From a virus (lineage: Duplodnaviria; Heunggongvirae; Uroviricota; Caudoviricetes): DNA of 64,000 nt. Shown here piece by piece: positions 1,578 to 49,345 of the stretch (the stretch's first letter is position 1; every line of letters begins with the position of its first letter). Where the stretch lies: IMG/VR virus record IMGVR_UViG_3300027744_000008; one strand, 5' to 3'. Made by a program: the position numbers and the translations under genes. Below the pieces are notes generated by a model. It was given only the letters and a program-made list of their open reading frames with translations. It made no database searches and was not told the DNA's origin.

Positions 1578-3542
1578 ATGGCAGTGGTTCAAATCTCAAG
1601 GATTCAGCAGCGTCGAGGAAGAAAAGATGACGGATTACCGCAACTGGCTAGCGGTGAACTTGCATGGTGTATTGACACACAGGAGTTGTTCATCGGTAAC
1701 GGATCAGTTGCTGAAGGTTCACCAGCAGTGGGAAATACCAAACTACTGACAGAGTACGATAATCTATTAAATTTAATAGGTACTTACGAATTTGCCAAGA
1801 ATGATGATAGTATTCAGACTGGCGCTGAAATTAACTTCCCGGTAACTAGATCTGTACAACAACGATTAGATGACGAAGTCTCTATGGCAAGTTTTGGTGT
1901 TCTAGACGACAACTCTGTCCAAACGCCCGACTATCGAACAGCTGCCATGCAACGTGCTATTGACCAACTATACCTAAGTGCATCACGTAATGGAGAAACT
2001 AGTTCTAGAATAGAACTACAAATTTCTCCTGGAGAGTTCACTATTTCAGATACACTATATCTTCCTAGTTTTGTTACACTAGTCGGCGCGGGCAAAAATA
2101 AAACTATTATTAATTATACAGGTGCCGGCCCCATAGTAGAATGTGTCGACGATGAGTCTAGTGTGGGTGTATATCGCACATTAACTACTATAGTCTGTGA
2201 AGTAACTACGGTTAATTATTATGAAGGTCTTGATATAGTTAATAAGATACTAGTAAATGATACTACTGGAATCTCTATAGATGACGAAGTTGTATTTAGA
2301 GGAACCGGATTTGGTAATATTGAGATCGGAACAACTTACTACGTTAGAACAATAAGTAACGACAACGACTACATTACTATTAGTGAATCAACTGTATTAG
2401 GTGGAGATCCTATCTTTACACTAATCGACGATATAGGTTTTATGCGGGCAATAATTACTGTTAACGGTAACAGTACAAATTCTACAAATCAACCGCAGCA
2501 TATAAATGTACGAGGTATAGGTTTAACAACTGAAAGCAATAGCACACAAGGTATTGTGTTTAATGCAGTTAGAGATAGTGTGTTTGACGACATTGGATTA
2601 ACCGGGCTATGGAAAGCAGATGACGACCATGCAACTACTCCAAATAGCCGAGCATTAGAATTAAATTCTGTCAGCGCAGTTGTTACTTCAGAACGTAATA
2701 TATTTAAAGATATAGAAATAACAGGTTTCACCTACGGTGTATGGTCAACGCAAGATGCACAGTACAATAAGTTTGACAATTTATATATACACGGAGTAGG
2801 AACATCATTAAATGTGCATCAAGCCATAGTTTTTGGAAATGGTGCCAGTGCTGGTAGAGGACCAAAAAATAATACTATATCAAATTCGATTTTTGAACTA
2901 GTACATAGACACGGTATTTACATTAGTACAGGCCTAGGTAATACCAGCATTGCCAACAGATTTGTAAATGTTGGTAATGATGGACAGGGTAATAGTTTTT
3001 CATCATGGCCACACATTTATTTTGGTGATCCTGGAAATTCGTCACACAACGATGAATTTGATAGAGTAGAGGACCTTGAAGGTGCGGCCAACGGTAGTTC
3101 AGTTTATGTGCCTAATATTAACGGGCATGTTGCCTACGATTCAACTTCAGTTAGTAGTATTAATCTTACCTATGCCGCAACGCCACCTGCTATTTCTACA
3201 GTAATCGCCCTACGACTGCCAATGCCAAACTTAAACTCTAGTATACCCACTGCAAGAGATAATATTGGATATGAAATTAATTATGTATATCGAAGAAATA
3301 ACGATTCTACATCTAGATTTGGTAGGCTATTAATTAATGCAGATGTACCCACTGATACAGTACAGTTAGTCGATGAGTACGAGTTTGTCGGTGCAGCAGG
3401 TCAGGAAATAAAATTATCATTTACAGCTAGAATCTGGGATACCAATGGCGATACATTCAAAGATACACTGCAAATCTTCTATAATATTGCCAGCTCAACC
3501 GACGATGGTACTATGAGCTACTCATATCGAAGTATTTTTTAA
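1578..3542 (+). CDS. tail fibre / tail-spike-like structural protein with right-handed beta-helix (pectate-lyase-like) domain
   Basis: N-terminal motif IQQRRG...LASGELAWCIDTQELFIGNG common to phage tail-fibre proteins; repeated N/G/T/S-rich beta-helix turns (NVRGIGLT, IEITGFTYGVWS, NLYIHGVG); RBS aagaggat before ATG. Confidence 0.6.
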   Translation: MAVVQISRIQQRRGRKDDGLPQLASGELAWCIDTQELFIGNGSVAEGSPAVGNTKLLTEYDNLLNLIGTYEFAKNDDSIQTGAEINFPVTRSVQQRLDDEVSMASFGVLDDNSVQTPDYRTAAMQRAIDQLYLSASRNGETSSRIELQISPGEFTISDTLYLPSFVTLVGAGKNKTIINYTGAGPIVECVDDESSVGVYRTLTTIVCEVTTVNYYEGLDIVNKILVNDTTGISIDDEVVFRGTGFGNIEIGTTYYVRTISNDNDYITISESTVLGGDPIFTLIDDIGFMRAIITVNGNSTNSTNQPQHINVRGIGLTTESNSTQGIVFNAVRDSVFDDIGLTGLWKADDDHATTPNSRALELNSVSAVVTSERNIFKDIEITGFTYGVWSTQDAQYNKFDNLYIHGVGTSLNVHQAIVFGNGASAGRGPKNNTISNSIFELVHRHGIYISTGLGNTSIANRFVNVGNDGQGNSFSSWPHIYFGDPGNSSHNDEFDRVEDLEGAANGSSVYVPNINGHVAYDSTSVSSINLTYAATPPAISTVIALRLPMPNLNSSIPTARDNIGYEINYVYRRNNDSTSRFGRLLINADVPTDTVQLVDEYEFVGAAGQEIKLSFTARIWDTNGDTFKDTLQIFYNIASSTDDGTMSYSYRSIF

Positions 3543-3746: not shown

Positions 3747-6071
3747 ATGTCAACTATCACAGTAATTAAAAGAAATGGGAAGAAAGAGCCGTTAACCATA
3801 GAAAAATGGCAAACGCAGATTGCCAAAGTCTGTAGCGGTACAGCAGATGTTAGTCAAAGTATGATTGAGATTAAAGCTCAATTACATTTTTATGATGGAA
3901 TTACAACTAAAGAAATTGATGGTATAACTCTACGTGCTATAGTAGATCTCATCGATGTAGAGTCAAACCCGGACGTAGGTCATGTTAATTATCAATATGT
4001 AGCGGGCAAACAGCGCCTCAGTATGCTACGTAAGGATGTATACGGAATATACGAGCCTCCCCACCTATATGAGATTGTTAAGAAGAATGTAGCCACTGGC
4101 TTATATACTCCCGATCTTCTTAAATGGTATAGTGAGGACGACTGGGATAAAATGAACGACATCATAGATCATTCAAAAGATGAACAATACGGATATGCTA
4201 GTATTGAACAGCTAATAGAAAAATATCTAGTAAAGAATCGATCCACTAAGGAAATATATGAAACTCCGCAGGTTAGATACATGGTGGCCGCAGCCACAGT
4301 CTTCCACAAAGAAGAGCCCAACACAGCCCGTATGCGATATATCAAAGAATACTACACAGCAGCCAGTGACGGACTCTTTACCTTGGCCACGCCAGTGTTG
4401 GCAGGCCTTGGTACTCCTACTAAACAGTTTAGTAGTTGCGTACTTATTAGGTCGGATGATGATCTGGACAGTATTTTCGCGTCCGGAGAGATGATGGCCA
4501 AGTATGCCAGTAAACGTGCTGGCATTGGATTAGAAATTGGACGCCTACGCCCCTTGGGATCCCCTATAAGGGGAGGTGAAATAATGCACACCGGCATGAT
4601 CCCATTTCTAAAGAAATGGTTTGGTGATTTACGTAGTTGTAGTCAAGGAGGTATCCGTAACGCTAGTGCTACTGTGTTCTATCCTATTTGGCATCATCAG
4701 TTTGATGATCTTATTGTGCTTAAAAACAATCAAGGAACAGAAGAAACCCGAGTTAGACACATGGACTACGGAGTCGTCCTCTCCGCCTTCTTCTGGAGAC
4801 GATTTCGAAACAAGGAAACTATAACTTTCTTTGATCCCAATGAAGTACCAGACCTGTATGAAGCGTTTTATCGTAACACCGAGCTATTTGAAGAGCTGTA
4901 CGTAAAATATGAAAAACGTAAAGACCTTCGAACAAAAACAATGAATGCCGAGGATGTATTCAAGGGCGGCATTCTTAAAGAGCGTACTGACACAGGACGT
5001 ATCTATCTAGTGTTCATTGACAATGTAATGAATCAAGGACCTTTTGACCCTGAATACCATACCATTTATCAAAGTAATCTCTGCTGTGAAATACTTCTTC
5101 CTACTAAATCCTTTAAGCGTTTGGATGACAGCGATGGCCGTATCGCTCTTTGCACACTGGGCTCAATCAACTGGGGTGCGTTCCGCAATCCTGAAGACAT
5201 GCGCCGTGCTTGCCGTATTCTTCAGCGTAGCCTGTGCAACATATTGGACTACCAAGACTTCCTCTCAATCCAATCAAAACTATCAAATGATGAAATCCAA
5301 CCCTTGGGTATCGGAGTCACAAATCTTGCCTACTGGCACGCCAAGCGTGGACTCAAGTACGGCGAAAAAGACGCACTCCAAGATGTAAAATCTTGGATGG
5401 AACATCAAGCGTTTTATCTAACAGAAGCCACGGTTGAATTAGCCAAAGAACGCGGTCCATGCACACACAGTGGTAGAACAAGATATGGTCAAGGCATATT
5501 CCCCTGGGAACTACGTGCCAAGGGTGTGAATGAACTTACTGACTTTACTCCTGAACTACCTTGGGAACCACTACGTGCTGAGATGAAACAGTATGGTGTT
5601 CGCAACGCCACACTTATGGCAATTGCCCCTGTAGAATCTAGTAGTGTAGCCATTAACAGCACTAACGGGATCGAGTTGCCTATGAGTTTAATCAGTGTCA
5701 AGGAAAGTAAAGCAGGGTCATTTATTCAAGTGGTCCCCGAATACCACAGGCTAAAGAACAAATATCAACTTATGTGGGAACAAAAAGACTGCGACGGATA
5801 TCTTAAAACTGCCGCAGTGTTGGCTGCTTACGTTGACCAAAGCATTAGTACAAATACTTTTTATAATCCCGCACACTGGGCAGACCGTAAAGTACCGACT
5901 ACACTAATTGCCAAAAATTTAATGCAAGCCCATATATGGGGATTAAAAACATTCTACTACAGTCTGATTAATAAAGCAGGCAGTAAAGCCAACGAAGAAC
6001 TAGTGCAGACCATTGCACAAACATACATAGAACAAGAATTAGAAGACGACTGCGAGGCATGTAAACTATGA
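3747..6071 (+). CDS. nrdA: ribonucleoside-diphosphate reductase large subunit (class Ia) with N-terminal ATP cone
   Basis: 774 aa; ATP-cone (VIKRNGKKEPLTIEKW), catalytic region motifs (NLCCEILL, C-terminal CEAC); followed by nrdB with 4-nt overlap. Confidence 0.9.
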   Translation: MSTITVIKRNGKKEPLTIEKWQTQIAKVCSGTADVSQSMIEIKAQLHFYDGITTKEIDGITLRAIVDLIDVESNPDVGHVNYQYVAGKQRLSMLRKDVYGIYEPPHLYEIVKKNVATGLYTPDLLKWYSEDDWDKMNDIIDHSKDEQYGYASIEQLIEKYLVKNRSTKEIYETPQVRYMVAAATVFHKEEPNTARMRYIKEYYTAASDGLFTLATPVLAGLGTPTKQFSSCVLIRSDDDLDSIFASGEMMAKYASKRAGIGLEIGRLRPLGSPIRGGEIMHTGMIPFLKKWFGDLRSCSQGGIRNASATVFYPIWHHQFDDLIVLKNNQGTEETRVRHMDYGVVLSAFFWRRFRNKETITFFDPNEVPDLYEAFYRNTELFEELYVKYEKRKDLRTKTMNAEDVFKGGILKERTDTGRIYLVFIDNVMNQGPFDPEYHTIYQSNLCCEILLPTKSFKRLDDSDGRIALCTLGSINWGAFRNPEDMRRACRILQRSLCNILDYQDFLSIQSKLSNDEIQPLGIGVTNLAYWHAKRGLKYGEKDALQDVKSWMEHQAFYLTEATVELAKERGPCTHSGRTRYGQGIFPWELRAKGVNELTDFTPELPWEPLRAEMKQYGVRNATLMAIAPVESSSVAINSTNGIELPMSLISVKESKAGSFIQVVPEYHRLKNKYQLMWEQKDCDGYLKTAAVLAAYVDQSISTNTFYNPAHWADRKVPTTLIAKNLMQAHIWGLKTFYYSLINKAGSKANEELVQTIAQTYIEQELEDDCEACKL

Positions 6072-8342: not shown

Positions 8343-8633
8343 ATGCCAGCAGTAACAAGGATTGGAGATGCAGACGTTGCCCATTGCTCGGGCATGGTAA
8401 GAGCAGCTGGCTCTGGGAACGTATTTGCCAATAATCGTCCAATCAGCAGACAGAGCGATGTTAATACTGTACATTTGTTGCCAGGAAGTCCTTGTCCTGC
8501 ACATTCTGCACCAATCGCTTCTGGAAGTAGCAGTGTATTTGTAAACAATCTAGGATGCGGACGAATCGGAGATGCACTGTCTGGGTGTACATCAGTGGCT
8601 GCAGGTAGCTCAAATGTCTTTGCTGGTGGATGA
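8343..8633 (+). CDS. PAAR-repeat protein (baseplate central spike tip)
   Basis: RIGDADVAHCSG..., three PAAR-like repeats (VFANNRPISRQSD, VFVNNLGCGRIGD, VFAGG), 96 aa typical size. Confidence 0.75.
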   Translation: MPAVTRIGDADVAHCSGMVRAAGSGNVFANNRPISRQSDVNTVHLLPGSPCPAHSAPIASGSSSVFVNNLGCGRIGDALSGCTSVAAGSSNVFAGG

Positions 8634-8694
8634 AATATTTTTCTAATGAGATAATGCACATAAGTATTGTGTAATTGCCTAAAGGAGAAATATA

Positions 8695-8889
8695 ATGGCT
8701 ACAAATAAACACGCAGAATTCACAGCAATCGTAGAAGCAATGGAGGCAGACTTTGAAAAGTTTTATGACAAAGAAGTTGGCGCAGCTGGTACACGAGTCC
8801 GCAAGCATTGTCAAGATTTGGCCAAGTTATGCAAAGACACCCGTAACGATGTGACAGCAGTTAAAAATGCCCGCAAAGAAGTAAAATAA
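8695..8889 (+). CDS. Hc1-like histone H1-type nucleoid protein (small basic DNA-binding)
   Basis: AAGTRVRKHCQDLAKLCKDTRND resembles Chlamydia Hc1 KAAAQRVRTESIKLEKIAKVYRKE segment; strong RBS aaaggagaaatat. Confidence 0.4.
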   Translation: MATNKHAEFTAIVEAMEADFEKFYDKEVGAAGTRVRKHCQDLAKLCKDTRNDVTAVKNARKEVK

Positions 8890-8904: not shown

Positions 8905-9294
8905 ATGGCATACAGTAGTAAAGTAATTGATCATTACGAAAATCCAAGGAATGTAGGATCATTTGAAAAAGATGATCCTACAGTTGGTACAGGTATGGTC
9001 GGTGCACCGGCTTGCGGCGACGTGATGAAACTGCAAATCAAAGTAGACAAAGATGGCATTATTACCGATGCCAAATTTAAAACTTATGGATGCGGTTCAG
9101 CAATTGCCAGTTCAAGCCTTGTTACTGAGTGGGTAAAGGGTATGCATATCAATGATGCTGTCAACCTTAAAAATTCTCAAATTGCCGAAGAACTAGCCCT
9201 GCCTCCTGTAAAGATACATTGCAGTATATTAGCAGAAGATGCTATAACAGCCGCAGTGGCAGATTATCGAAAGAAGCATGATCTCTCTAACTGA
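8905..9294 (+). CDS. iscU: Fe-S cluster assembly scaffold IscU/NifU-like
   Basis: YSSKVIDHYENPRNVG, GAPACGDVMKL, YGCGSAIASSS, KIHCS motifs. Confidence 0.85.
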   Translation: MAYSSKVIDHYENPRNVGSFEKDDPTVGTGMVGAPACGDVMKLQIKVDKDGIITDAKFKTYGCGSAIASSSLVTEWVKGMHINDAVNLKNSQIAEELALPPVKIHCSILAEDAITAAVADYRKKHDLSN

Positions 9295-9601
9295 ACGTGC
9301 AGAAAATCAGATTATACAACTACTCAAAAAAAGAGGCGGCCTCGGCCTACGTATAGGTGTCAAAACTACGGGCTGTAGTGGTCTTGCCTATGTGTTAGAA
9401 TATCTAAAAGAAGATAAGTTTGACCCTGCAGACGAACGCATTGTTTACAAAGACTTTATTGTAAAAACAGCCACTAGAGATTTGGTTTATCTTAGAGGAC
9501 TAGTAGTGGACTATGTTAAAAACGGACTCAATGAAGGATTTGAATTTAAAAATCCAAATGAACGTGATCGTTGCGGGTGTGGCGAATCGTTTCGAGTATA
9601 A
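9278..9601 (+). CDS. iscA: Fe-S cluster insertion protein IscA/HesB family
   Basis: GCSGLAY... C-terminal CGCGESF signature of A-type carriers. Confidence 0.8.
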   Translation: MISLTERAENQIIQLLKKRGGLGLRIGVKTTGCSGLAYVLEYLKEDKFDPADERIVYKDFIVKTATRDLVYLRGLVVDYVKNGLNEGFEFKNPNERDRCGCGESFRV

Positions 9602-14714: not shown

Positions 14715-15078
14715 GTTGTTTAATCTATCAGAAAGTTTTTTATTGGTTAAACCATCGACTACTGTAAAACAACAATTCCAAGCAATACTGAGTCAAATTA
14801 ATGACAGTGTTAATGTTTTTATCTTTGACGAAAGTGATCACGATATTGAGTGGATGCTGAGTGTAGCACAACAAGTAGATCATGTTATTTTAGATTTAGA
14901 TAACTGCGATCCATTAACTAGGCAATTTGCCACAGTTATAATGGTACAGGCTAATGTACATTACTTTACCACTGATATAGCAACTCCCTACAATTTAATA
15001 AATCGAAATCGAATTTATAATTTAGATTGGATGATTTCTATTAACAAAGACGAGGAAGAGGAAGACGACGATGAGTGA
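14674..15078 (+). CDS. hypothetical acidic protein
   Basis: ORF track; C-terminal DEEEEDDDE. Confidence 0.4.
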   Translation: MSLGKINLITPPDKLFNLSESFLLVKPSTTVKQQFQAILSQINDSVNVFIFDESDHDIEWMLSVAQQVDHVILDLDNCDPLTRQFATVIMVQANVHYFTTDIATPYNLINRNRIYNLDWMISINKDEEEEDDDE

Positions 15079-15304
15079 TTCATATCGTCCTCGTAGGAAT
15101 GCTGTCTACGTTAAAAATGATGACGTAGGCCGTGCTATTAAGAAACTCAAAAACAAAGTTGAAGAAAGTGGTCTATTAACAGATCTGCAAAGAAAAGAGT
15201 TTTACGAAAAACCCACCACTACACGTAAACGCAAGGCCGCCGCTGCCAAACAGCGTTACAAAAAGAAAGTTGCTTCAGAGCAACTACCACCTAAGCTATA
15301 CTAA
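15071..15304 (+). CDS. rpsU: 30S ribosomal protein bS21 homolog
   Basis: VYVKNDDVGRAIKKLKNKVEESGLLTDLQRKEFYEKPTTTRKRKAAAAKQRYKK matches S21 consensus (V.V.....ALRRFKR...GIL.E.RRREFYEKP..RKRK..AA.KR). Confidence 0.85.
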   Translation: MSDSYRPRRNAVYVKNDDVGRAIKKLKNKVEESGLLTDLQRKEFYEKPTTTRKRKAAAAKQRYKKKVASEQLPPKLY

Positions 15305-15319
15305 CCAAACTGATTGTTT

Positions 15320-15345
15320 TTTATAACAGTTCTGTTATAATATAG
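15320..15345 (+). promoter_or_regulatory. inverted repeat overlapping a TATAAT -10 (possible operator/promoter)
   Basis: ttataacagttctgttataat palindrome 20 nt upstream of exonuclease gene. Confidence 0.3.
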
Positions 15346-15365
15346 TATAACTACGAAAGACTTAC

Positions 15366-15890
15366 ATGGCAAAACACCTAATGGTAGACTTAGAAACTTT
15401 GGCTACCTCCCCTGATGCGGCAATACTGACAATTGGTGCAGTATTGTTTGATCCTTACTCAACAAGGGTCTATGATAAATTCTACACTAGAGTGAATCTT
15501 GAGTCTACAACAGACTTAGGTATGAAGATTGATGACTCAACTATTGAGTGGTGGAGCAAGCAATCCGCGGCTGCACAGGAAGAAGCGTTCAGCGAAGAAA
15601 ATCGTATACCAATTACAGAAGCCATTGAACAGTTCCATAAATTTGCTTGGAATTGCGAAGCATTTTGGAGTCACGGTAGTATCTTTGACATTAACATTTT
15701 AGACACTTACTATAGAAAACTAGGTAAAGCACCGCCATGGAACTATTGGCAAGTACGTGATACACGCACAGTATTTGATTTGGGCTACGATCCCGAACTA
15801 CCAAAAATCACAGCACACAATGCCCTAGAAGATGCTAATGCACAGGCCATTGGTGTACAAACAATTATGAGAAAGATAGGACGCAGATGA
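15366..15890 (+). CDS. DEDDh 3'-5' exonuclease (DnaQ-like)
   Basis: MVDLETL (Exo I D-x-E), WSHGSIFDI (Exo II), ITAHNALEDANAQA (Exo III, H..D). Confidence 0.75.
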   Translation: MAKHLMVDLETLATSPDAAILTIGAVLFDPYSTRVYDKFYTRVNLESTTDLGMKIDDSTIEWWSKQSAAAQEEAFSEENRIPITEAIEQFHKFAWNCEAFWSHGSIFDINILDTYYRKLGKAPPWNYWQVRDTRTVFDLGYDPELPKITAHNALEDANAQAIGVQTIMRKIGRR

Positions 15891-16174
15891 TAGATAATCA
15901 AACTAAAGAAGTTATGGACATTCTCCAAGAAGAATGTGCAGAAGTAATTCAAGCGGTAAGTAAGATCAGCCGCTTTGGTCTAGACAATTTTAAACCTGGT
16001 AAGCCTAAAACTAACAGGGAACACCTAGAAGAAGAACTAGGCGATATGCTGGCTATGATTGACATATTATGTAGTATGCATGTAGTTGACTCGGACAACT
16101 TACGTATTGCAAAATTAGCCAAAATTCAAAAACTAAAACAATGGTCAAACATTCAAAATCTTGAGAATGTTTGA
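15887..16174 (+). CDS. mazG: MazG-like nucleoside triphosphate pyrophosphohydrolase
   Basis: EECAEVIQAV...EELGDMLAMIDIL EExxE/ELGD MazG motifs; 95 aa. Confidence 0.75.
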   Translation: MIDNQTKEVMDILQEECAEVIQAVSKISRFGLDNFKPGKPKTNREHLEEELGDMLAMIDILCSMHVVDSDNLRIAKLAKIQKLKQWSNIQNLENV

Positions 16175-16240
16175 GATAAATAAATTTGTAGAGCGCCGTA
16201 AAGGGCCTACAAATTCTTGCTTAATTAAAGGAGAACAATT

Positions 16241-18130
16241 ATGAGCAAAATCATTGGTATCGACTTAGGTACAACAAATTCGTGTGTGGCTGTTATGGAA
16301 AACGGCAAAGCTAAGATCATTGAAAATAGCGAAGGCGCACGTACAACACCCTCAATCATTGCTTACACTGACAAAGAAATTCTAGTTGGTGCAACAGCAA
16401 AACGCCAAGCAGTAACAAATCCAAAAAACACAATCTATGCAGCCAAACGCTTAATTGGACGTAAGTTCAAAGAAGAAGCTGTACAAAAAGACATCGACCT
16501 GATGCCCTTCAAAATTACCGAAGCTAGTAACGGTGATGCTTGGGTCAGCGTAAATGACAAAGAACTAGCACCTCCACAAATTTCAGCGGAAGTACTACGT
16601 AAAATGAAAAAGACTGCTGAGGACTATCTTGGACATGAAGTAACAGAAGCAGTTATCACAGTACCGGCTTACTTTAATGACAGCCAACGTCAGGCAACCA
16701 AGGATGCAGGTAAAATTGCTGGACTGGATGTTAAACGTATTATCAATGAACCAACAGCGGCCGCATTAGCCTATGGTGTTGATAAAGAAGACAAACAAGA
16801 TCGTAAGATTGCAGTCTATGACCTAGGTGGTGGTACATTTGATATTTCAATCATTGAGATTGCCAACGTCGACGGCGATAAACAGATTGAAGTACTGTCA
16901 ACGAACGGTGATACATTCCTAGGTGGTGAAGACTTTGACCAACGTATTATGGATTACTTGGTTGATGAATTTAAGAAAGACACTGGCGTGGATCTCAAGA
17001 AAGATATGCTGTCACTACAGCGTCTAAAAGAAGCCGCAGAAAAAGCCAAGATTGAACTTTCAAGTTCGGCACAAACAGATGTTAACTTGCCCTACATTAC
17101 AGCAGATGCCAGTGGTCCTAAACATATGAATATTAAACTTACACGTAGTAAGTTTGAACAATTAGTTGAAGATCTAGTTGAACGCAGTATTGCTCCTTGC
17201 CGCATTGCACTACAGGATGCAGGCCTAAATCAAAACGCTATTGACGAAATTATTCTTGTTGGTGGACAAACACGTATGCCTAAAGTACAAGAAGCAGTTG
17301 AAAAATTCTTTGGTAAAGCACCACGCAAGGATGTTAACCCAGATGAGGCAGTGGCTGCAGGTGCCGCTATACAAGGTGCTGTTTTATCAGGCGACAAAAC
17401 AGATGTATTGTTGTTAGATGTTACACCGCTAAGTCTTGGTATTGAAACCATGGGCGGCATTATGACTAAACTGGTCACTAAAAACACCACTATCCCAACT
17501 AAGGCTAATCAAGTATTCAGTACAGCAGATGATAACCAACCTGCTGTTACTATCAAGGTCTTCCAAGGCGAGCGTGAGTTGTGTGCGTTCAATAAACTTC
17601 TAGGTGAGTTTAATTTAGAAGGGATTGAACCCGCACCACGTGGTATGCCACAGATTGAAGTTACCTTTGATATTGATGCCAACGGTATTCTTAATGTCAG
17701 CGCCAAAGACAAGAAAACTAATAAAGAAAAGAATATTGTCATTAAAGCCAACAGTGGACTAAGTGATGCTGAAGTTCAACAGATGATCCGTGAAGCAGAA
17801 GAAAATGCAGATGCTGATAAAAAGGCACGTGGGCTTATTGAAGCACGTAATGGTGCTGAGTCTCAAATTCATTCTTTAAAGAAAGATCTTGAGGAACACG
17901 GCGATAAGATCACTGAAGCTGAAAAGACTGAAATCGAAGAAGTTATCAAAACTGTACAAGAAGCAACCAATGGTAACGATGCAGAAGCTATCAATGAAGC
18001 AGTTGGTAAAATCTTCACTGTCGCTGGTCCATTGATGCAGAAGAAAACGGAGGCAGAGCAAGCCAAGGCTCAACCTCAACAAAACGAAAACGGCGACACC
18101 GTAGTTGATGCTGAATTCAAAGAAGTTTGA
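16241..18130 (+). CDS. dnaK: molecular chaperone DnaK (Hsp70)
   Basis: [36 protein letters not shown] Hsp70 signatures; 629 aa; RBS taaaggagaac. Confidence 0.95.
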
Positions 18131-18216
18131 CACAGACACAGACAGATAGTATAATACAGATGTAGGGCGCCGATGGTCGGGCCCTACACAGTTCTTGCTT
18201 AATAAAGGAGACTAAC

Positions 18217-18636
18217 ATGCAATTAAGAACTATTGACACTGCCGCATTGGCACAACTGAGTAAAGCACTAGTAGGCTTTGATCGTTATTTTACTGCACCA
18301 CATCATCAAAATGGTAATTATCCCCCGCACAACGTTGTCAAATATGCCGACGACAGCTATGGCATTGAAGTAGCGGTAGCAGGTTTTAGCAAAGATGAGA
18401 TCACAGTAGAAGTGGATCAAGACCAACTAACAATTCGTGGCGTTAAAAATCGGCTAACTGATCCCACTTTTGAGTACTTACATCGTGGACTAGCGGCTCG
18501 TGACTTTGAACAAACATTTACTCTTGCTGAGTATATGGAAGTTCATGGCGCCAAGGTAGAAGACGGGATGTTGCAAATTGACATTCAACGAATTATGCCC
18601 GAGGCGCTCAAACCTCGACAAATTGAAATCAAATAA
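18217..18636 (+). CDS. small heat-shock protein Hsp20 (IbpA-like alpha-crystallin domain)
   Basis: alpha-crystallin-like AVAGFSKDEITVEV...LTIRG; RBS aataaaggagac. Confidence 0.75.
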   Translation: MQLRTIDTAALAQLSKALVGFDRYFTAPHHQNGNYPPHNVVKYADDSYGIEVAVAGFSKDEITVEVDQDQLTIRGVKNRLTDPTFEYLHRGLAARDFEQTFTLAEYMEVHGAKVEDGMLQIDIQRIMPEALKPRQIEIK

Positions 18637-18650
18637 GATTAAATAACAAT

Positions 18651-18677
18651 GGGGGAGGAAACTCCCCCTCTTTTAAA
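18651..18677 (+). terminator. rho-independent terminator (GNRA-loop hairpin gggggag-gaaa-ctccccc + U-run)
   Basis: seen after hsp20 stop; the track ORF start at 18649 lies inside this hairpin, so ClpS start moved to 18691. Confidence 0.6.
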
Positions 18678-18690
18678 AGAGAGTATTACT

Positions 18691-18993
18691 ATGTCCACCA
18701 CTGATATCAAAATTGACGAAAAAATTAAAGTCAAAGTCGCAGAACCTAAACGTTGGAAAGTAATTTTCCTTAATGACGACTCAACTCCTATGGATTTTGT
18801 TGTTGGCATATTAATTGAAATTTTTAAACATACAGATGCCACTGCCCGTGATATTATGATTATTGTACACGAGACAGGCAGCGGCATTGCAGGTGTTTAT
18901 AGTTTTGAAATTGCCGAAGCAAAAGCAGTAGAAGCAACACAGGCAGCACGTACTAACGGATTCCCCTTACAGATTAAACTGGAAGAAGAATGA
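18691..18993 (+). CDS. clpS: ATP-dependent Clp protease adaptor ClpS
   Basis: KRWKVIFLNDDSTPMDFVVGIL...ATARDIMIIVHETGSGIAGVYSFEIAE matches ClpS core. Confidence 0.85.
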   Translation: MSTTDIKIDEKIKVKVAEPKRWKVIFLNDDSTPMDFVVGILIEIFKHTDATARDIMIIVHETGSGIAGVYSFEIAEAKAVEATQAARTNGFPLQIKLEEE

Positions 18994-19532
18994 GTTTACG
19001 TGAAATAACACAGGATTTACACGCAGACGCAGAACGTACAATATTTGCCAAGAAACTAGTAACAGGCTCCTTTACTTCAGAAGAGTATGCTAACTATCTT
19101 TGGCAAATGGTTTTAGTATACAACGGTATAGAAGTTGCAGCCAATAGTCAGGGTATGTTAAAAAACTTACCTGACATCGAAAGAACACACAAGATATTTC
19201 AAGATTGTATAGAACTGGTTGGTATACATCACAATCTTAAATGGTTGCCCGAAACCATTGACTACTATCAATATCTATTAACACTGAATTACGACTCAGA
19301 ACGTAGGCATCTTATCAAAGCACATTTATACTGCCGTCATATGGGGGACCTGTTTGGCGGACAGATCATTGCTAAAAATTGTCCGGGACAAGGAAGATTT
19401 TATCAATTCAAAGATGCTGAAAATCTAAAAACAGCCATACGTGCTGAACTTACAGACGATCTCGGAGACGAAGCCCGTGTGGCATTTGCATGGGCCATTA
19501 AACTTATGAAAGCATTGATAAAGAATGAGTGA
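18990..19532 (+). CDS. heme oxygenase
   Basis: LHADAERTIF...YANYLWQMVLVYNGIE and AHLYCRHMGDLFGGQII align with HO-1 proximal helix (H..AE..F) and AHAYTRYLGDLSGGQ motif. Confidence 0.8.
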   Translation: MSLREITQDLHADAERTIFAKKLVTGSFTSEEYANYLWQMVLVYNGIEVAANSQGMLKNLPDIERTHKIFQDCIELVGIHHNLKWLPETIDYYQYLLTLNYDSERRHLIKAHLYCRHMGDLFGGQIIAKNCPGQGRFYQFKDAENLKTAIRAELTDDLGDEARVAFAWAIKLMKALIKNE

Positions 19533-19538
19533 ACTAGT

Positions 19539-20312
19539 ATGGATTTTATAAGTAAATTCAGATGGTTTTATTACATGAATCTCATAAGTATTCCTGTGGG
19601 TATTATAGTAGCGTTTTATACATCATTGTACTGGTTACTTTTTACTTTTTTTTGGTATAGATTTGTAGGTATAATTTTTTTCTCTATTGGACTTCATAGA
19701 TATTTTGCACATAGATCTTTTAAAACTGGTCCTTTGAGACATAAAATACTTGCTCTAGGATCAATACTAACTGGTGCTGGAAGTCCTATAGCATTTTCTG
19801 CATCGCATACACATCACCATAAGCACAGTGATAAAGAATTGGATCTACATAGTCCTAAGGATGGGGCTTTTCACTCATGTGTCTCTTGGTTACTCAATTC
19901 TAAACAGTGGTTTTTTGAGGAAAAAGGAATGATTGTTCCTATGTTTGCAGTAAAAGATAGATTCGTTAACTTTGTTCATAAGTATTATTTTAGTTTATGG
20001 TTTCTGATATCTCTTAGTTTGTTCTTGATTGACTGGAAACTTTTTCTGTTTATGATACCAGTAACAGCAGGCATTGGTACTTTAACAAATAATTTTGTCG
20101 GGGTATATATTGCCCATGTGAAATTACCCGGATCATACAAAAATTTTGATACAAAGGATAATAGTTATAATAATCAATTTGTTCAATTGTTGGAAATAGC
20201 AGAAGGGTATCACAATAATCATCACGCAGATCCTTCTAATTATAACTTTGCTAGAAAACCAGGTGAGTTTGATGCGTGTGCCTGGATAATTGAAAGATTT
20301 TTTAAAATATGA
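19539..20312 (+). CDS. membrane acyl-lipid/acyl-CoA delta-9 desaturase-like protein (paralog 1)
   Basis: His boxes HRYFAHRSFK, HTHHHKHSDKELDLHSPKDG, EGYHNNHHADP; 2+2 TM topology. Confidence 0.7.
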   Translation: MDFISKFRWFYYMNLISIPVGIIVAFYTSLYWLLFTFFWYRFVGIIFFSIGLHRYFAHRSFKTGPLRHKILALGSILTGAGSPIAFSASHTHHHKHSDKELDLHSPKDGAFHSCVSWLLNSKQWFFEEKGMIVPMFAVKDRFVNFVHKYYFSLWFLISLSLFLIDWKLFLFMIPVTAGIGTLTNNFVGVYIAHVKLPGSYKNFDTKDNSYNNQFVQLLEIAEGYHNNHHADPSNYNFARKPGEFDACAWIIERFFKI

Positions 20313-20989
20313 ATGATGTTTGGAATACCTTAATTGAAATTGAAAACTACTTTGAATCAAAGTTTTATGCTACAGGCAGTATCGTAAACGAGCCAGGAAT
20401 GGATCGCTTTAACCAACCAGGTTGGGTTAACAAAGTTTGGGCCAGTAGTCAGTATCGTAGAGCACACATTGATGTAGTAGATGCCCGTGACACCAAGGGA
20501 CTTTGGATGATGCACTGCTGTGTATTTCCACACTTGCACAATCCTGCACCTATCTTTGGATTTGATGTAGTAGCAGGTAAAAACAAGATCACAGGCTGCT
20601 TTCACGACTTTAGTCCAGCAGGCGATCATAATCATCCTCTAATTGACTGGTTCATGGAAGAATCAGAAAAACTTACTTGGAATAAAAAGCGACCCTTACC
20701 AGACTGGGCAGAACGTATCTTTACCAAACATATGATTGCTGCGGGCAACGTCAGCGAAGAAGACGAACTAGCGCAGATTTTAGCCATGGCACGTAAGAAC
20801 TTAAACTGCTATCTAGATGAAGTGGGACTAACTAATAATACTGTGGATAATACAAAAGACGCACAGAATTACTATGCACAGAATCAAAAAATGAACCCGC
20901 ATACGCCTAAAGTCATGGCTAGCCTAGGCCTAAACGAAAAAGATGTGCAGTTGTTTATTCAGGACTGTTTGTTCCCGGAGATAGTATAA
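20309..20989 (+). CDS. ferredoxin-dependent bilin reductase (PcyA/PebS/PcyX family)
   Basis: VNKVWASSQYRRAHIDVVDARDTKGLWMMHCCVFPHLHNPAPIFGFDVVAG aligns with PcyA W.AS.YRKIHLE..DILHCVMFP..PLFGCD..AG core; directly downstream of heme oxygenase. Confidence 0.75.
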   Translation: MNDVWNTLIEIENYFESKFYATGSIVNEPGMDRFNQPGWVNKVWASSQYRRAHIDVVDARDTKGLWMMHCCVFPHLHNPAPIFGFDVVAGKNKITGCFHDFSPAGDHNHPLIDWFMEESEKLTWNKKRPLPDWAERIFTKHMIAAGNVSEEDELAQILAMARKNLNCYLDEVGLTNNTVDNTKDAQNYYAQNQKMNPHTPKVMASLGLNEKDVQLFIQDCLFPEIV

Positions 20990-27306: not shown

Positions 27307-27510
27307 ATGGCAACAGGTAAAGTAAAATGGTTTAATGAAACCAAGGGTTTTGGGTTTATTACTCCAGACAACGGTGGTGAGGATTTATTTGCTCACTACT
27401 CAGCAATTCAGTCTTCGGGCTTTAAAGTTCTACAAGAAAATCAAGAAGTAACTTTTGATGTAATTCAGGGTATGAAGGGTAAACAAGCAGCAAATATTGT
27501 ACCCCAATAA
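27307..27510 (+). CDS. cspA: cold-shock protein CspA family
   Basis: [49 protein letters not shown]: RNP1/RNP2 motifs of CSD. Confidence 0.9.
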
Positions 27511-27596: not shown

Positions 27597-27704
27597 TATG
27601 CCTAGCCCACGTAGGGTCAGTCAGATTTTAAAAGGCAAAAAGCCTCCAAAGCCAAAGACAGTTAAGACTATGGCTAAACGAGTAGTTAGACGAAAGTCTA
27701 AATA
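27597..27704 (+). CDS. tiny Arg/Lys-rich peptide (35 aa)
   Basis: RBS aaaggaaataaatt; MPSPRRVSQILKGKKPPKPKTVKTMAKRVVRRKSK. Confidence 0.3.
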
Positions 27705-28045
27705 AGAAATTGTTGTAATTCCTTCAAAGTGAAGGCATTCTGGACGCGGGTTCGACTCCCGCCAGGTCCACCATTAAGTATACTCTATCCGCAAGGAGAC
27801 AAGTGGGTTCATCCATGTAGTGTACTTAATAATGGGCCTGCCATGGCTTCGACAGGGTGAGATAATAGAGACGGCAACACGGTAGGCGATGACCGTTAAT
27901 CAAGCAAAAACCGTAAATGCAACCGCAAATACATTCAAGTTTTGGCAAGCACCAGTTAGCATCGCTGCTAACGACGAGTTTGCACTAGCAGCCTAAGAAA
28001 CTGCACTTGCGAGGTAGGAAAGACCTTGTCATCCAACACACCAAA
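27705..28045 (+). ncRNA. ssrA: two-piece (circularly permuted) tmRNA: acceptor piece ending ...GGUUCGACUCCCGCCAGGUCCACCA (about 27705-27773), coding piece from GGGCCUGCCAUGGCUUCGACAGGG (27834) with tag reading frame ...AANDEFALAA-stop
   Basis: tRNA-like T-arm plus CCA precedes the 5' acceptor strand (gggcctg pairs caggtcc); gct gct aac gac gag ttt gca cta gca gcc taa = AANDEFALAA; gene closed by a terminator. Confidence 0.75.
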
Positions 28046-28072
28046 AAGGTTGCTTCGGCAACCTTTTTTCTT
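28046..28072 (+). terminator. rho-independent terminator (aaggttgc-ttcg-gcaacctt + U-run)
   Basis: seen directly after tmRNA. Confidence 0.7.
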
Positions 28073-28114
28073 TATAATACACACATCACAACACAACAAA
28101 CACGAAAGAAATAG

Positions 28115-29182
28115 ATGGCATACTTTTTAAAATCCGGTAACACCTTCCAGGTCAGCTCAAAAGAGGCAATGGATCTCTACGAGTTGTTGCCAGCTGGCAA
28201 CTATGTAGTTAAAGAAGCGCCTATGAACGGACCCCTGTATCTTGAAACTATTGATTCATTTGAAATCAAAGGTAAAATCTACGGTGATACTGTGCGTACA
28301 GCCGCACGTATCCTAAACACATTCAATGATCGTCCAGCAAGTACTGGCGTCATGCTTACAGGCGAAAAAGGTTCTGGTAAAACTTTGCTGGCAAAGATGC
28401 TGAGTGTTAAAGGTGCTGAATCAGGTGTGCCCACTATCGTTATTAACGCACCTTGGGTAGGTGACAAGTTCAACGCTTTCTTGCAGTCAATTGATCAGTC
28501 TTGTATCATCTTGTTTGACGAGTTTGAAAAGGTCTACGACAAAGATGAACAAGAAGGTATTCTAACCTTGTTGGACGGTGTATTCCCCAGCCGTAAGCTG
28601 TTCATTCTAACCTGTAACGACAAATGGCGTGTTGACAGCCACATGCGTAACCGTCCGGGTCGTATCTACTACATGCTGGATTACAAAGGGCTTGACCAAG
28701 ACTTCATCGTTGAATACTGTGAAGACAATTTGAAAACAGAATTGAAACAGCACATTGACAGCATCTGTAAGATTGCCGCAATGTTTGATCAGTTTAACTT
28801 TGACATGCTAAAGGCTCTCTGCGAGGAAATGAATCGCTACAACGAAACACCACAAGAATCCTTGAAGCTGTTGAATGCCAAGGCTGAGTTCTCAGGAGAA
28901 CAGCGTTATGCTGTAAACTTAGTGCCAAAAGGCAAAGTAGTGCCTTTTGAAAAATTAGAATCACGAGAGTGGCAAGGCAATCCATTGTCAAATCGTATTA
29001 GTCTCGACTACAAGGTAGATGTAGAAGATGGCGACTACGACTGGGAGTGCTGTAACTTTGCCAATACCGACTTGAAGGAAATTGATCCTACAAATGGTAA
29101 GTTTATCTTCATCAATGACTTTGGCGACAAAGTAGTGTTGAGCCGTGTTAAGGAACGTGAGTTCCGCTTTGATGCATTTTAA
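28115..29182 (+). CDS. AAA+ ATPase
   Basis: Walker A GEKGSGKT, Walker B IILFDEFE; RBS gaaagaaatag. Confidence 0.6.
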   Translation: MAYFLKSGNTFQVSSKEAMDLYELLPAGNYVVKEAPMNGPLYLETIDSFEIKGKIYGDTVRTAARILNTFNDRPASTGVMLTGEKGSGKTLLAKMLSVKGAESGVPTIVINAPWVGDKFNAFLQSIDQSCIILFDEFEKVYDKDEQEGILTLLDGVFPSRKLFILTCNDKWRVDSHMRNRPGRIYYMLDYKGLDQDFIVEYCEDNLKTELKQHIDSICKIAAMFDQFNFDMLKALCEEMNRYNETPQESLKLLNAKAEFSGEQRYAVNLVPKGKVVPFEKLESREWQGNPLSNRISLDYKVDVEDGDYDWECCNFANTDLKEIDPTNGKFIFINDFGDKVVLSRVKEREFRFDAF

Positions 29183-32657: not shown

Positions 32658-33455
32658 ATGATGACTTTCAACAACAAGTTCCGAATTCTTTATATTTTAC
32701 TTTTGCTCAGTGTTCCTGCAAGTATAATAGTGGCCTTTGAAACTAGTTGGTGGTATTTAATTTGTAGTCTTGTTTGGTTTCGATTTACAAACACCATTTT
32801 CACTCAGATCGGATTACATAGATACTTTGCACATAGAAATTTTAAGACAGGCCCTTGGCGCCATCGATTGCTTGCTGTTGGAACTGTATTAAACGGCAGC
32901 GGCAGTATTATTACTTGGGGTTCAAACCATATACATCATCATAGGTATTCAGATAAACCAACGGATGTGCATAGTCCAAATGATGGCTGGTGGCATGTTG
33001 CATTTTCGTGGGCTATATCTAGTAAAGAATATTTCACTGAAGAAAAGAAAATTATTGTACCCAGATATCTGTTGAAAGATAAATTGATAGTCTGGTTACA
33101 CAATAATTATTTTATGATATGGTTTGTTGGTATTGTTGCGTTGACTCTAATTGATTGGAAGTTTGCGCTGTTTGGATTAATGGCACCTGCAGGATGGAAT
33201 ATTTTATCAGGTAATGTTTTGGCTAATCTGTTGACACACATAAAATTGTTCGGCTCTTATAGAACCTTTAACACCAGTGACAATAGTTATAACAACAAGT
33301 TTATACAAATACTTGTATTTGGTGAAGGTTTGCACAACAATCACCATCATGATCCCAGCAAGCACAACCAAGCTGTGAAGCCGGGAGAATATGATCCAGC
33401 CAGCTGGATCATTAAACACTGCTTTGAAACTAAATCTAGTGCAGAACAACAATAA
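32658..33455 (+). CDS. delta-9 desaturase-like membrane protein (paralog 2)
   Basis: HRYFAHRNFK, HIHHHRYSDKPTDVHSPNDG, EGLHNNHHHDP His boxes. Confidence 0.7.
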   Translation: MMTFNNKFRILYILLLLSVPASIIVAFETSWWYLICSLVWFRFTNTIFTQIGLHRYFAHRNFKTGPWRHRLLAVGTVLNGSGSIITWGSNHIHHHRYSDKPTDVHSPNDGWWHVAFSWAISSKEYFTEEKKIIVPRYLLKDKLIVWLHNNYFMIWFVGIVALTLIDWKFALFGLMAPAGWNILSGNVLANLLTHIKLFGSYRTFNTSDNSYNNKFIQILVFGEGLHNNHHHDPSKHNQAVKPGEYDPASWIIKHCFETKSSAEQQ

Positions 33456-49020: not shown

Positions 49021-49242
49021 ATGAACGGTAGAACATCGCAGGCAGCAGTAGAAATGGTGGGCAATAGATTTGATCTTATATTAATTTCCAGTCTGAGGGC
49101 CAGGGAATTACGTGCAGGCTATCCATCAAAATTAGCCAAGACCAATGGACCCATTATAACTGCATTAAATGAAATTGAGCAAGGGCTTGTTGGTAGAGAA
49201 TATCTAAAGAAAATTAAAGGTAAAACACGCTACGATAGGTAG
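49021..49242 (+). CDS. rpoZ: DNA-directed RNA polymerase omega subunit homolog
   Basis: AVEMVGNRFDLILISSLRARELRAG matches RpoZ signature ([21 protein letters not shown]). Confidence 0.7.
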   Translation: MNGRTSQAAVEMVGNRFDLILISSLRARELRAGYPSKLAKTNGPIITALNEIEQGLVGREYLKKIKGKTRYDR

Positions 49243-49251: not shown

Positions 49252-49345
49252 CCCTCTGTAGTTTAATGGTAAAACACCTGTTTTATACACAGCATCGTCG
49301 CCAGATTAGCGAGCGTTCTAGGTTCGAATCCTAGCAGAGGGACCA
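49252..49345 (+). tRNA. atypical tRNA: C1-G72/A73, anticodon loop uuUAUac (TAT) and about 24-nt variable region
   Basis: acceptor ccctctg/cagaggg, D gttt-aatggta-aaac, T ctagg-ttcgaat-cctag; identity uncertain. Confidence 0.45.

Follow-up and report, generated by a model that had tools for sequence, protein, structure and literature searches.

In a 64,000-nucleotide stretch of DNA from the IMG/VR virus record IMGVR_UViG_3300027744_000008 (hereafter the window), the genes for the chaperones DnaK (Hsp70) and Hsp20 each open with the same two-hairpin 5′ leader. Both genes belong to a six-gene block at positions 15071–18993, and the second hairpin of the leader would mask the SD (Shine–Dalgarno) element, much as ROSE-like RNA thermometers do. 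The leader is very probably a selected cis-element specific to chaperone genes. The block as a list of genes was already known in kind; what is new is the shared ROSE-like leader on a phage dnaK and hsp20, on groES in two relatives and on hsp20 of cultured phages.

A shared two-hairpin leader before dnaK and hsp20

The dnaK leader occupies 16185–16243 of the plus strand, with hairpin I at 16188–16210 and hairpin II at 16214–16235; the hsp20 leader, on the same strand, occupies 18159–18219, with the two hairpins at 18162–18187 and 18192–18211. In both leaders hairpin I is followed by UUCUUGCUU, AAU(U)A, AAGGAGA and then the start codon. Before dnaK, UUCUUGCUU (16214–16222) pairs with the SD element AAGGAGAA (16228–16235) and leaves G16219 bulged, and before hsp20 the same sequence (18192–18200) pairs with AAGGAGA (18205–18211) and leaves G18197 bulged. 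The successive pairs are U-A, C-G, U-A and U·G, then, past the bulged G, C-G, U-A and U-A, with the SD buried in the pairing. RNAfold on individual leaders returned hairpin II as (((((.(((...)))))))). ROSE-like elements are defined by a U(U/C)GCU stretch that pairs imperfectly with the SD and leaves a bulged G (PMC11342760). This arrangement was found in the window as UUCUUGCUU/AAGGAGA at 16214–16235 and 18192–18211, in both cases in the 5′ untranslated region of a heat-shock gene; the placement in an untranslated region, rather than at an internal intercistronic site, follows from the predicted promoters described below.

The distribution of the leader was followed with a covariance model (R1) built from 59 distinct leaders of related loci. 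The relatives were the best 80 of several hundred IMG/VR loci for each of two anchor proteins, DnaK and the exonuclease encoded in the same block, and all 80 loci listed per anchor protein are IMG/VR contigs, of up to 400 kb. Run unfiltered on the window, R1 found only the dnaK leader (67.1 bits, E 3e-16) and the hsp20 leader (64.6 bits, E 1.6e-15), the next best score being 15 bits. In 80 relatives (1.38 Mb) it gave 124 matches, all on the coding strand, and 123 of these run up to the initiation codon of dnaK, hsp20 or groES; the exception is a 103-residue open reading frame (ORF) without assigned function (locus L020). GroES and GroEL genes, neither of which was found in the window, are inserted between dnaK and hsp20 in two relatives (L060 11950–13873; L045 3124–5040), and groES bears the same leader in both. 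A regular-expression scan of 2.8 Mb returned 90 matches for DnaK, 77 for Hsp20, two for GroES and one unknown, and the same layout precedes hsp20 in 60 unique relatives. The wider IMG/VR collection was scanned with an exact pattern, which occurred on at least 120 contigs. Among the 123 matches listed, 103 lie upstream of Hsp20 genes (34–75% identity to the window Hsp20) and at least five more before truncated Hsp20 genes, with 7–8 before DnaK, two before GroES and about five before other genes.

We discarded a sigma-32 promoter and a CIRCE operator as identities of the leader motif, since CTTGCTT is 20 nt away from the start codon and the sequence of hairpin I is variable. Relatives also carry a looser CUUGCC(U)-UAAAGGAG motif upstream of a gene for an Hc1-like histone (PF07432), with about 15 regular-expression matches (for example L009 2478 and L039 1302); at the Hc1 gene of the window (about 8685–8879), R1 scored only 9 bits.

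Hairpin I covaries. A MAFFT alignment of the leaders contains 73 double-sided changes in this hairpin, compared with 19.7 ± 3.8 in shuffled controls (none of 500 as high), and 94.3% of the alignment cells pair, against 87.3% when shuffled and 52–64% with the partners slid. Model-fitted alignments, which lean toward the modelled structure, gave 233 double changes against 62 in the lineage and 261 against 80 ± 11 in an independent IMG/VR sample, and slid controls gave 0.09 or less. Covariation is confined to hairpin I; the paired positions of hairpin II are invariant, and its loop and bulge vary. Within a genome, the dnaK and hsp20 leaders agree in their bulge base in 61 of 68 cases (37 G/G and 24 A/A), only two being mixed; for this agreement parallel change, gene conversion between the leaders or a shared trans-acting reader are possible causes.

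Resemblance to ROSE elements and occurrence in cultured phages

By eye, the same two-hairpin leader precedes hsp20 in all six cultured phages inspected: Syn9, P-TIM68, S-CRM01, S-CAM1, PA5oct and OM43 phage Melnitz-3. Five of these leaders score 25–53 bits with R1 (that of PA5oct 30.1 bits), and S-CAM1 fails at E ≤ 0.01. The Melnitz-3 leader aligned over its full length with the Rfam family ROSE_3 (RF02523) at 34.1 bits (E 2e-4 for 4.8 kb and 7e-6 for 151 nt), in an alignment that spans both hairpins and the AUGCC...GGGU core that the ROSE_3 consensus shares with hairpin I. One relative (L080) reached 21.6 bits with a ROSE model (E 4.4). The UCGCU variant occurs in 59 of 59 distinct leaders of Syn9-like cyanophage loci, which had been chosen through a single Syn9 protein anchor and hence without bias as to the leader.

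Like ROSE_3 and the short two-hairpin ibpA leaders of Pseudomonas, the phage element forms the 5′ leader of a small heat-shock gene, pairs U(U/C)GCU imperfectly with the SD around a bulged G set between U·G and C-G (PMC11342760), and has an upstream helper hairpin. It differs from these in being encoded by lytic phages rather than bacteria, in standing before dnaK and groES as well in this lineage, and in a more AU-rich helix whose bulge holds A in 40% of the lineage copies; the window copies fall below every Rfam threshold, and thermosensing by the phage leader is putative.

Predicted folding of the leader across temperatures

On present evidence, whether the leader senses temperature is evenly balanced. 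Nearest-neighbour calculation gives hairpin II alone only −7.5 kcal/mol at 5 °C, weakening to −2.3 kcal/mol at 37 °C; for the dnaK leader in context, the predicted share of hairpin II that is formed is 63% at 5 °C but 22% at 20 °C, and its pairing probability drops from 0.63 to 0.05 overall. Such marginal stability would be needed by a thermometer working in water of 5–25 °C and would equally be shown by a non-structure. The dnaK anti-SD stretch UUGCUUA (16215–16221) is also complementary to the start region UGAGCAA (16240–16246), and RNAfold prefers the resulting 7-bp helix at 10 °C and above. This start-codon helix could be an alternative way of masking initiation; relatives of the UUACU class use UCU or UCA serine codons at the start, so its conservation is ambiguous.

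Several observations weigh against a thermometer. The hairpin II probability of the window hsp20 leader is about 0, a competing helix with the coding region being preferred, and the SD opening energies lie near the bottom when compared with the other 90 window genes, which argues against strong masking. Nearest-neighbour folding thus leaves hairpin II marginal and thermosensing unsettled. Because hairpin II carries no compensatory changes, the case for its pairing comes from conservation and design. At the bulge, 60% of the lineage leaders read UUGCU, about 40% read UUACU, with A instead of the canonical G, and a few read UCGCU. The window leaders have no match to the Rfam ROSE families (RF00435, RF01832 and RF02523) even at E ≤ 10, an Rfam scan of the window at gathering score returned only tRNAs and the transfer-messenger RNA (tmRNA), and the sole significant ROSE_3 match, that of Melnitz-3, stays under the gathering score of 43.

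The weak and, before the window hsp20, out-competed hairpin II, the missing Rfam match and the A at the bulge would also suit a cis-regulatory RNA that is real and not a thermometer, acting as a protein operator (for Hsp20 that represses its own mRNA and those of other chaperones, or for a RegA-type translational repressor) or in mRNA stability or processing. SD masking would then mean constant damping or protein-controlled release. E. coli IbpA represses through the ibpA leader, and ibpA leaders of bacteria combine the two roles, being thermometers as well as targets of IbpA. The G/A concordance within genomes would be in keeping with one trans-acting reader for both leaders, the regA gene stands immediately upstream of hsp20 in P-TIM68, S-CRM01 and S-CAM1, and hairpin I at the predicted 5′ end occupies the classical position of a stabilising hairpin. 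This alternative has to accommodate the pairing of U(U/C)GCU with AGGAG around a purine bulge set between U·G and C-G, which is the defining ROSE-like design (PMC11342760), a motif found almost only before heat-shock chaperone genes, and a ROSE_3 alignment spanning both hairpins of the homologous phage leader; operator and thermometer are, moreover, not mutually exclusive. We regard a leader with no thermometer function as somewhat unlikely.

The broadest form of the thermometer reading is that a ROSE-type element has come down together with hsp20 in T4-like cyanophages, in myoviruses of the pelagiphage and OM43 types and in jumbo phages like PA5oct, and was copied onto dnaK and groES in the present lineage, making a phage heat-shock regulon tuned by ambient temperature. 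We hold this tentatively, a little short of even confidence.

Predicted promoters and transcription units

An initial annotation of this DNA had placed DnaK, Hsp20 and ClpS in one operon. That arrangement is not what we found: a promoter-like site and a 5′ leader precede dnaK, and a second such pair precedes hsp20, so that the two genes appear to be separate units that open with the same two hairpins. Upstream of dnaK, which is preceded by GATAAATAAA, an ATAAATA motif at 16176–16182 (plus strand) corresponds to the core of the T4-type late promoter TATAAATA and lies 6 nt before the leader hairpin; 64 of 67 unique relatives have it before dnaK as well. By analogy with T4-like phages in general, we presume it to be a late promoter. 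The window contains 19 copies of ATAAATA, 16 of them in the 16% of the sequence that is non-coding, mostly 11–65 nt before a start codon. hsp20 follows a predicted sigma-70 consensus promoter, TTGACA-17-TATAAT at 18127–18155 (plus strand), which matches at 12 of 12 positions, is the best in a 10-kb scan and overlaps the dnaK stop codon; a TATAAT-like −10 element precedes hsp20 in 28 of 60 unique relatives. The predicted hsp20 transcription start coincides with the base of its leader hairpin, and both predicted transcripts begin at the base of the GC-rich hairpin I. The transcription starts and promoter classes are read from motifs, a point to be set against this division into units.

Between hsp20 and clpS lies a GC-rich hairpin with a terminator-like match, GGGGGAGGAAACTCCCCC (18651–18668, plus strand). 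It shows compensatory changes in about 60 unique relatives, and a U-run follows only some copies. It is possibly a partial terminator or mRNA stabiliser and may set the ratio of Hsp20 to ClpS expression.

Conservation of the block and descent of DnaK

The gene order S21–exonuclease–(MazG)–DnaK–Hsp20–ClpS–heme oxygenase (HemO)–ferredoxin-dependent bilin reductase (FDBR) recurs in relatives, and all 80 IMG/VR loci retrieved with DnaK (74–79% identity) are syntenic. The commonest order starts further upstream, as IscU–IscA–...–S21–exonuclease–(MazG)–DnaK–Hsp20–ClpS–HemO–FDBR. hsp20 lies directly 3′ of dnaK in 68 of the 76 loci with room for it, and the HemO–FDBR pair follows ClpS in most relatives. 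For all eight genes (the six of the block together with those for HemO and FDBR) the ratio of nonsynonymous to synonymous substitution rates (dN/dS) against relatives is about 0.09–0.21, with synonymous sites saturated, so that all eight are under purifying selection, which for DnaK (about 0.1) is strong. We are highly confident that the module is viral, conserved and functional.

The initial annotation had proposed phylogenetic placement of DnaK as a way to its donor lineage. In a neighbour-joining tree of 69 distinct viral proteins and their 80 closest cellular DnaKs, the viral sequences form one clade in 100 of 100 bootstraps, and the placement points to a beta- or gamma-proteobacterial donor, with the sister group unresolved within these classes. 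Median identity is 77% between viral DnaKs and 70% between viral and cellular ones, and identity among the viral proteins is as low as that within the cellular set. The single clade, low identity among viral proteins, saturated synonymous sites and dN/dS of about 0.1 together argue for a single ancient capture followed by vertical descent. The phage dnaK thus appears to go back to one old beta/gamma-proteobacterial acquisition that was inherited vertically and lost its grpE and dnaJ neighbours.

In cells, grpE and dnaJ adjoin dnaK in 79 of the 80 loci, and none of the 80 shares other window genes. Hidden Markov models of DnaJ and GrpE, built from 79 cellular sequences each, had no match at E ≤ 10, either in the window or across 86 viral loci, including the 10 kb around dnaK. 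J-domain or GrpE partners, which the initial annotation had suggested looking for elsewhere in the genome, are therefore absent from the window and from within 10 kb of dnaK in the 80 relatives; the rest of the 320-kb genome may contain a J-protein gene, which would count against a DnaK that depends on host partners. Presumably the phage DnaK uses host DnaJ and GrpE, or partners encoded elsewhere in the phage genome. The rarity in phages that had been claimed for Hsp70 together with Hsp20 and ClpS stands for DnaK, which matched only 44 of 50,697 deposited phage records, many of them contaminated fragments; it does not extend to the genes taken singly, every one of which has a phage precedent.

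Source of the contig, host and habitat

The exact proteins of the window are encoded on metagenome contigs, the longest measuring 320,469 bp, the length of the source contig, which bears out the jumbo-phage likeness noted initially. A contig of the same strain (99.96% identity over the overlap) reaches 9.9 kb further upstream and bears phage-only PHROG families, which also occur inside the window. In a close relative the block is adjoined by a homologue of a T4-like cyanophage virion protein (5e-95; 46% identity to S-RIM12), and the affinities of Hsp20, MazG and HemO–FDBR lie with cyano- and pelagimyophages. From the phage-only families, the virion-protein homologue, the ATAAATA motifs and the several hundred IMG/VR relatives, it follows that the source is a jumbo phage whose affinities, as judged by sequence, are probably T4-like. 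Megablast searches gave no match for 25 kb against deposited phages or for 12 kb against plasmids, and tblastn with concatenated proteins against cultured phages matched only a DUF2828/Ro60-like gene. Moraphages (PMC12619734) and boreal jumbophages (PMC13573597) were considered as this lineage and rejected, being a different lineage or described with no mention of the genes.

All six families are typical of cells, the window contains no capsid, portal or terminase gene, a PHROG scan of the 10 kb upstream of it found no classical hallmark gene, and IMG/VR holds some cellular contamination. One might accordingly take the block for cellular DNA (chromosome, plasmid, mis-assembly or mis-binning) or for a recent, functionless capture of host genes. 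Against that reading stand the closest cellular dnaK loci, which have grpE–dnaK–dnaJ and share nothing else with the window, the viral DnaK clade with its saturated synonymous sites and dN/dS of about 0.1, the phage-only families in and beside the window, the adjoining virion-protein homologue, the ATAAATA motifs that mark intergenic regions, 32 tRNAs and a tmRNA on one strand, and the lack of any plasmid match. A cellular origin is largely refuted and, in our estimate, extremely improbable; the viral origin assumed from the start, with relatives that are IMG/VR loci alone, holds.

The host is probably a betaproteobacterium, as several hints in the sequence suggest, and the habitat is probably fresh water. 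The cellular DnaKs nearest to that of the window belong to freshwater Burkholderiales (Limnohabitans, Polynucleobacter, Rhodoferax and others), so the marine setting mentioned in the initial annotation is not supported. The tmRNA matches the Rfam family beta_tmRNA at 121 bits (gathering threshold 84), with 137 bits in one relative (L042), and the best cultured match of Hsp20 is to OM43 phage Melnitz. The JGI/ENA samples that bear the exact proteins are, we believe, lake samples. A Lake Biwa metagenome yielded LBVG_1, a 317.9-kb S21-encoding jumbo phage, close in size to the 320-kb source contig and with Atu_ph07-like markers, that was assigned to LD12 (bioRxiv 10.1101/655167). LD12 is an alphaproteobacterium, and its assignment to that phage speaks against treating the betaproteobacterial host as established.

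Gene identities

Pfam and PHROGs profile searches of the window ORFs confirmed six ORFs at 15071–18993, all on the plus strand and at the coordinates first proposed. All six families were matched, and of the initial labels only DnaQ needs changing.

The first ORF (15071–15304) encodes ribosomal protein bS21 of 77 residues (PF01165, E 4e-16, 58.8 bits against a cutoff of 27; phrog_21469). It contains the S21 domain and a basic C-terminus and may be incorporated into ribosomes; its core KEFYEKPTTTRKRK and C-terminal LY are like those of E. coli bS21. The gene is at the same position in 45 of 80 relatives. The second (15366–15890) is a 174-residue DEDDh 3′–5′ exonuclease of the Rv2179c-like type (PF16473, E 9e-44; phrog_255, 'exonuclease') with recognisable DxE, D and H-x4-D motifs. 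Its closest solved homologue is 8KEL, a 227-residue 'Exodeoxyribonuclease' (E 5.5e-7) that we take to be T4 DexA. The DnaQ epsilon subunit was rejected as its identity, RNase_T scoring 20.3 bits (cutoff 24) against 149.8 bits for Rv2179c-like; by sequence the protein belongs to the DnaQ-like DEDDh superfamily and to a different family from the DnaQ proofreading subunit. A small MazG-type nucleoside triphosphate pyrophosphohydrolase of 95 residues follows at 15887–16174 (PF03819, E 6e-7; phrog_4856, 9e-23), its start overlapping the exonuclease stop by 4 nt.

The fourth gene (16241–18130) encodes a full-length DnaK/Hsp70 of 629 residues (PF00012, E 1e-258, residues 4–601) and the fifth (18217–18636) an Hsp20 small heat-shock protein of 139 residues (PF00011, E 4e-16; phrog_432, 5e-36), in which the alpha-crystallin domain covers residues 43–139 and whose closest solved homologue is 7CK4 (E 7e-20). 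The last is the N-degron adaptor ClpS, of about 100 residues (18691–18993; PF02617, E 4e-27), which matches the solved ClpS structures of Agrobacterium, Caulobacter and E. coli. Its ORF opens at 18649, and the true start is probably at 18691 (MSTTD...), because the first 42 nt of the ORF contain the conserved intercistronic hairpin and relatives start at the downstream methionine. The description of the whole block as translation and proteostasis genes fits four of the six; the exonuclease and MazG are nucleic-acid and nucleotide genes.

Directly downstream of clpS, co-directional with it and part of the same syntenic block, are the genes for HemO (18990–19532) and FDBR (20309–20989), both on the plus strand and identified through Pfam. 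A fatty-acid desaturase gene (19539–20312, plus strand; Pfam) lies between them as a strain-level insertion.

Functional residues of DnaK and ClpS

The window DnaK aligns with E. coli DnaK over residues 1–614 and has the full architecture of nucleotide-binding domain, linker, substrate-binding domain and lid. The ATPase motifs, including residues D8, K70, E171, D194, T199 and D201, and the interdomain linker are intact. The nucleotide-binding domain, linker and beta part of the substrate-binding domain are as conserved in the viral clade as in cells, and the lid is looser. Only 7 alignment columns set viral apart from cellular DnaKs. Two of these are K166L, at which the window DnaK keeps K, and F216I; they lie beside R167 and E217/V218, which we take, as a lead only, to be J-domain contacts. 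In ClpS, the equivalents of E. coli N34, D35, T38, H66, E79, E82 and L99 do not vary among 61 unique viral sequences, M40 is kept in 50 of the 61 and K84 in 54. In the E. coli protein N34, D35, T38, M40 and H66 belong to the N-degron pocket, and E79 and K84 touch the ClpA N-domain. The N-degron pocket and the ClpA-docking residues are thus apparently retained, which fits N-degron binding and docking to ClpA.

Host DnaK and DnaJ act on lambda O-P-DnaB. A role of DnaK, with Hsp20 and ClpS, mainly in phage DNA replication or remodelling or in counter-defence, rather than in virion folding, would agree with the position of the cluster among nucleotide and DNA genes (ribonucleotide reductase, exonucleases and MazG) and with the substitutions beside the presumed J-domain contacts. 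Counter-defence could work by titrating or replacing host chaperones that defence or toxin–antitoxin systems need, or by degrading defence proteins via ClpS–ClpAP; such roles of phage DnaJ and DnaK have been raised for moraphages (PMC12619734), and Iyer et al. propose that phage ClpS hands targets to host ClpAP (PMC7824862). The late-type motif before dnaK fits better with co-expression alongside structural genes, the heat-shock-type leader common to hsp20 and groES points to general folding, and DnaK is otherwise canonical. We therefore consider a primary role in replication or counter-defence improbable. It does weigh on a virion-folding role that what DnaK, Hsp20 and ClpS do in infection, and their use of host DnaJ, GrpE and ClpA, is judged by analogy with the bacterial families.

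Other genes in the window

The IscU/IscA genes at 8905–9601 and the further host-like genes listed in the initial annotation were all recovered: CspA as a cold-shock domain protein at 27307–27510, a parvulin-type peptidyl-prolyl isomerase at 55168–55428, the omega subunit of RNA polymerase at 49021–49242, and a permuted tmRNA at 27661–28087. From such genes, an extensive takeover of host protein synthesis is something we infer only. The tmRNA tag predicted by ARAGORN ends in ...ANDEFALAA, and no SmpB was seen in the window. Starting 28 nt after the tmRNA is a 355-residue AAA+ ATPase (28115–29182) with weak similarity to Cdc48/VCP-D2, and in relative L042 a weak Rfam match to the Y-RNA-like YrlA (4390–4488, E 0.52) overlaps the tmRNA. 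Beside the tRNA arrays, a gene at 56255–57664 encodes a DUF2828/DUF7788 protein (a Ro60/TROVE-related 'RNA-binding protein'); among the window genes, it alone is well matched in many cultured large myoviruses. ARAGORN also predicted a 94-nt tRNA-Ile(UAU) at 49252–49345 and a 94-nt tRNA-Ser(GCU) at 54263–54356. The former is unusually long for class I and may contain an insertion or intron.

Three fatty-acid desaturase genes occur in the window (19539–20312, 32658–33455 and 62556–63314). Past its end (L376 5761–15764) come a fourth, a UbiB/ABC1 kinase, a ketoacyl-ACP synthase, an ACP-like protein, a FabA-like dehydratase, a Rieske protein and a phosphopantetheinyl transferase, and the whole looks like a phage-borne island for lipid synthesis. 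Redox and oxygenase auxiliary genes are dense, with rubrerythrin (39361–39861), a B12-binding radical SAM enzyme (33726–35246), an Asp/Asn beta-hydroxylase (47049–47882), a TauD dioxygenase (50230–51105) and a nitroreductase (52106–52765); a 904-residue beta-propeller/cytochrome-like protein is encoded at 58397–61111. A 654-residue protein (1578–3542, ATAAATA upstream) with an N-terminal major tropism determinant domain (Mtd_N) and a pectate-lyase-like region, and a small PAAR-motif protein (about 8343–8633), are probably tail-fibre or spike parts.

Discussion

Hsp20 and MazG are standard in T4-like cyanophages. The window Hsp20 belongs with that of T4-like cyanophages and pelagiphage-type myoviruses (Kyanoviridae; 7CK4) in phrog_432, at 31–44% identity and with the same leader architecture; these phages have genomes of 140–230 kb, no DnaK or ClpS adjoining hsp20, and leaders of the UCGCU variant. 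The HemO–FDBR pair is 43% identical to that of Pelagibacter phage Mosig. Adjacent Hsp20 and ClpS genes in the same order, at 30–39% identity, are found in PA5oct of Pseudomonas and its relatives and in Phosso of Sinorhizobium, and PA5oct hsp20 has the same leader; these phages are of different families and have no DnaK upstream. In Lak megaphages, the huge phages of Al-Shayeb and moraphages, full-length bacterial-type Hsp70 likewise occurs in genomes above 200 kb (PMC12619734), but their DnaKs are only 48–57% identical to that of the window. Moraphages carry DnaK, DnaJ and HSP20 (PMC12619734), their DnaK coming from Flavobacteriales and DnaJ often being present, whereas the present lineage has a single old DnaK acquisition of beta/gamma-proteobacterial type, fixed Hsp20–ClpS partners and no J-protein nearby. 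Cultured jumbo phages are known to encode Hsp20, ClpS and DnaJ-domain proteins and not Hsp70 (PMC7824862), and Atu_ph07 has many Clp genes (PMC6102473). The bS21 gene is shared with aquatic phages such as HTVC008M (Chen et al. 2022), and Hsp20 and Clp genes near a phage bS21 have been noted before (PMC9723584); the phages of Chen et al. infect Bacteroidetes and encode bS21 among structural genes, and DnaK and the leaders were not described there. Compared with the bacterial grpE–dnaK–dnaJ operon, the phage DnaK is about 70–75% identical with all functional motifs, but its block is without co-chaperone genes, and phage promoters and the ROSE-like leader would take the place of sigma-32- or HrcA-type control.

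Taken as a whole, we think it likely, with moderate confidence, that the block represents a proteostasis module which a T4-like jumbo phage has inherited vertically, with chaperones gated by ROSE-like leaders. In such a module, dnaK would be transcribed from a T4-late-type promoter alongside the virion genes, and the phage DnaK, with host DnaJ and GrpE, would take on the folding of the structural proteins that the phage makes in large amount. hsp20 would be driven by a strong sigma-70 promoter, Hsp20 would hold unfolding proteins for DnaK, and ClpS would steer host ClpAP to N-degron substrates and away from ssrA-tagged and other substrates. Translation would be gated by the ROSE-like element for dnaK, hsp20 and, in genomes that encode it, groES: in the cold, UCUU[G]CUU would mask the SD, warming would melt the weak, bulged, AU-rich helix, and chaperone output per transcript would climb with temperature or folding stress. 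The 5′-terminal hairpin I may stabilise the mRNA and aid the correct folding of hairpin II.

Phage RNA thermometers in the searchable literature are those of lambda cIII, SPbeta blyA and a gut-phage sigma-70 gene, none of them ROSE-like (PMC11182007), and in the literature searched we found no paper linking hsp20 of cyanophages or other phages with an RNA thermometer or ROSE. If the reading as a thermometer is true, viruses would gain in this leader their first ROSE-class thermometer and their first shared thermosensing leader to coordinate several genes, and through the cyanophages it could be among the most abundant aquatic RNA thermometers. Phage chaperones are usually listed as auxiliary genes with their control unstated; here a control element can be read from the sequence, and it is common to hundreds of uncultured genomes and to the cultured phages Syn9, P-TIM68, S-CRM01, PA5oct and Melnitz. 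DnaK–Hsp20–ClpS without DnaJ or GrpE also offers a natural case of a foreign Hsp70 meeting host co-chaperones and ClpAP. Should thermosensing hold, the bacterial class of RNA thermometers would extend to viruses, and viral protein production in lakes and oceans would be coupled directly to water temperature, with a bearing on infection dynamics under seasons and warming.

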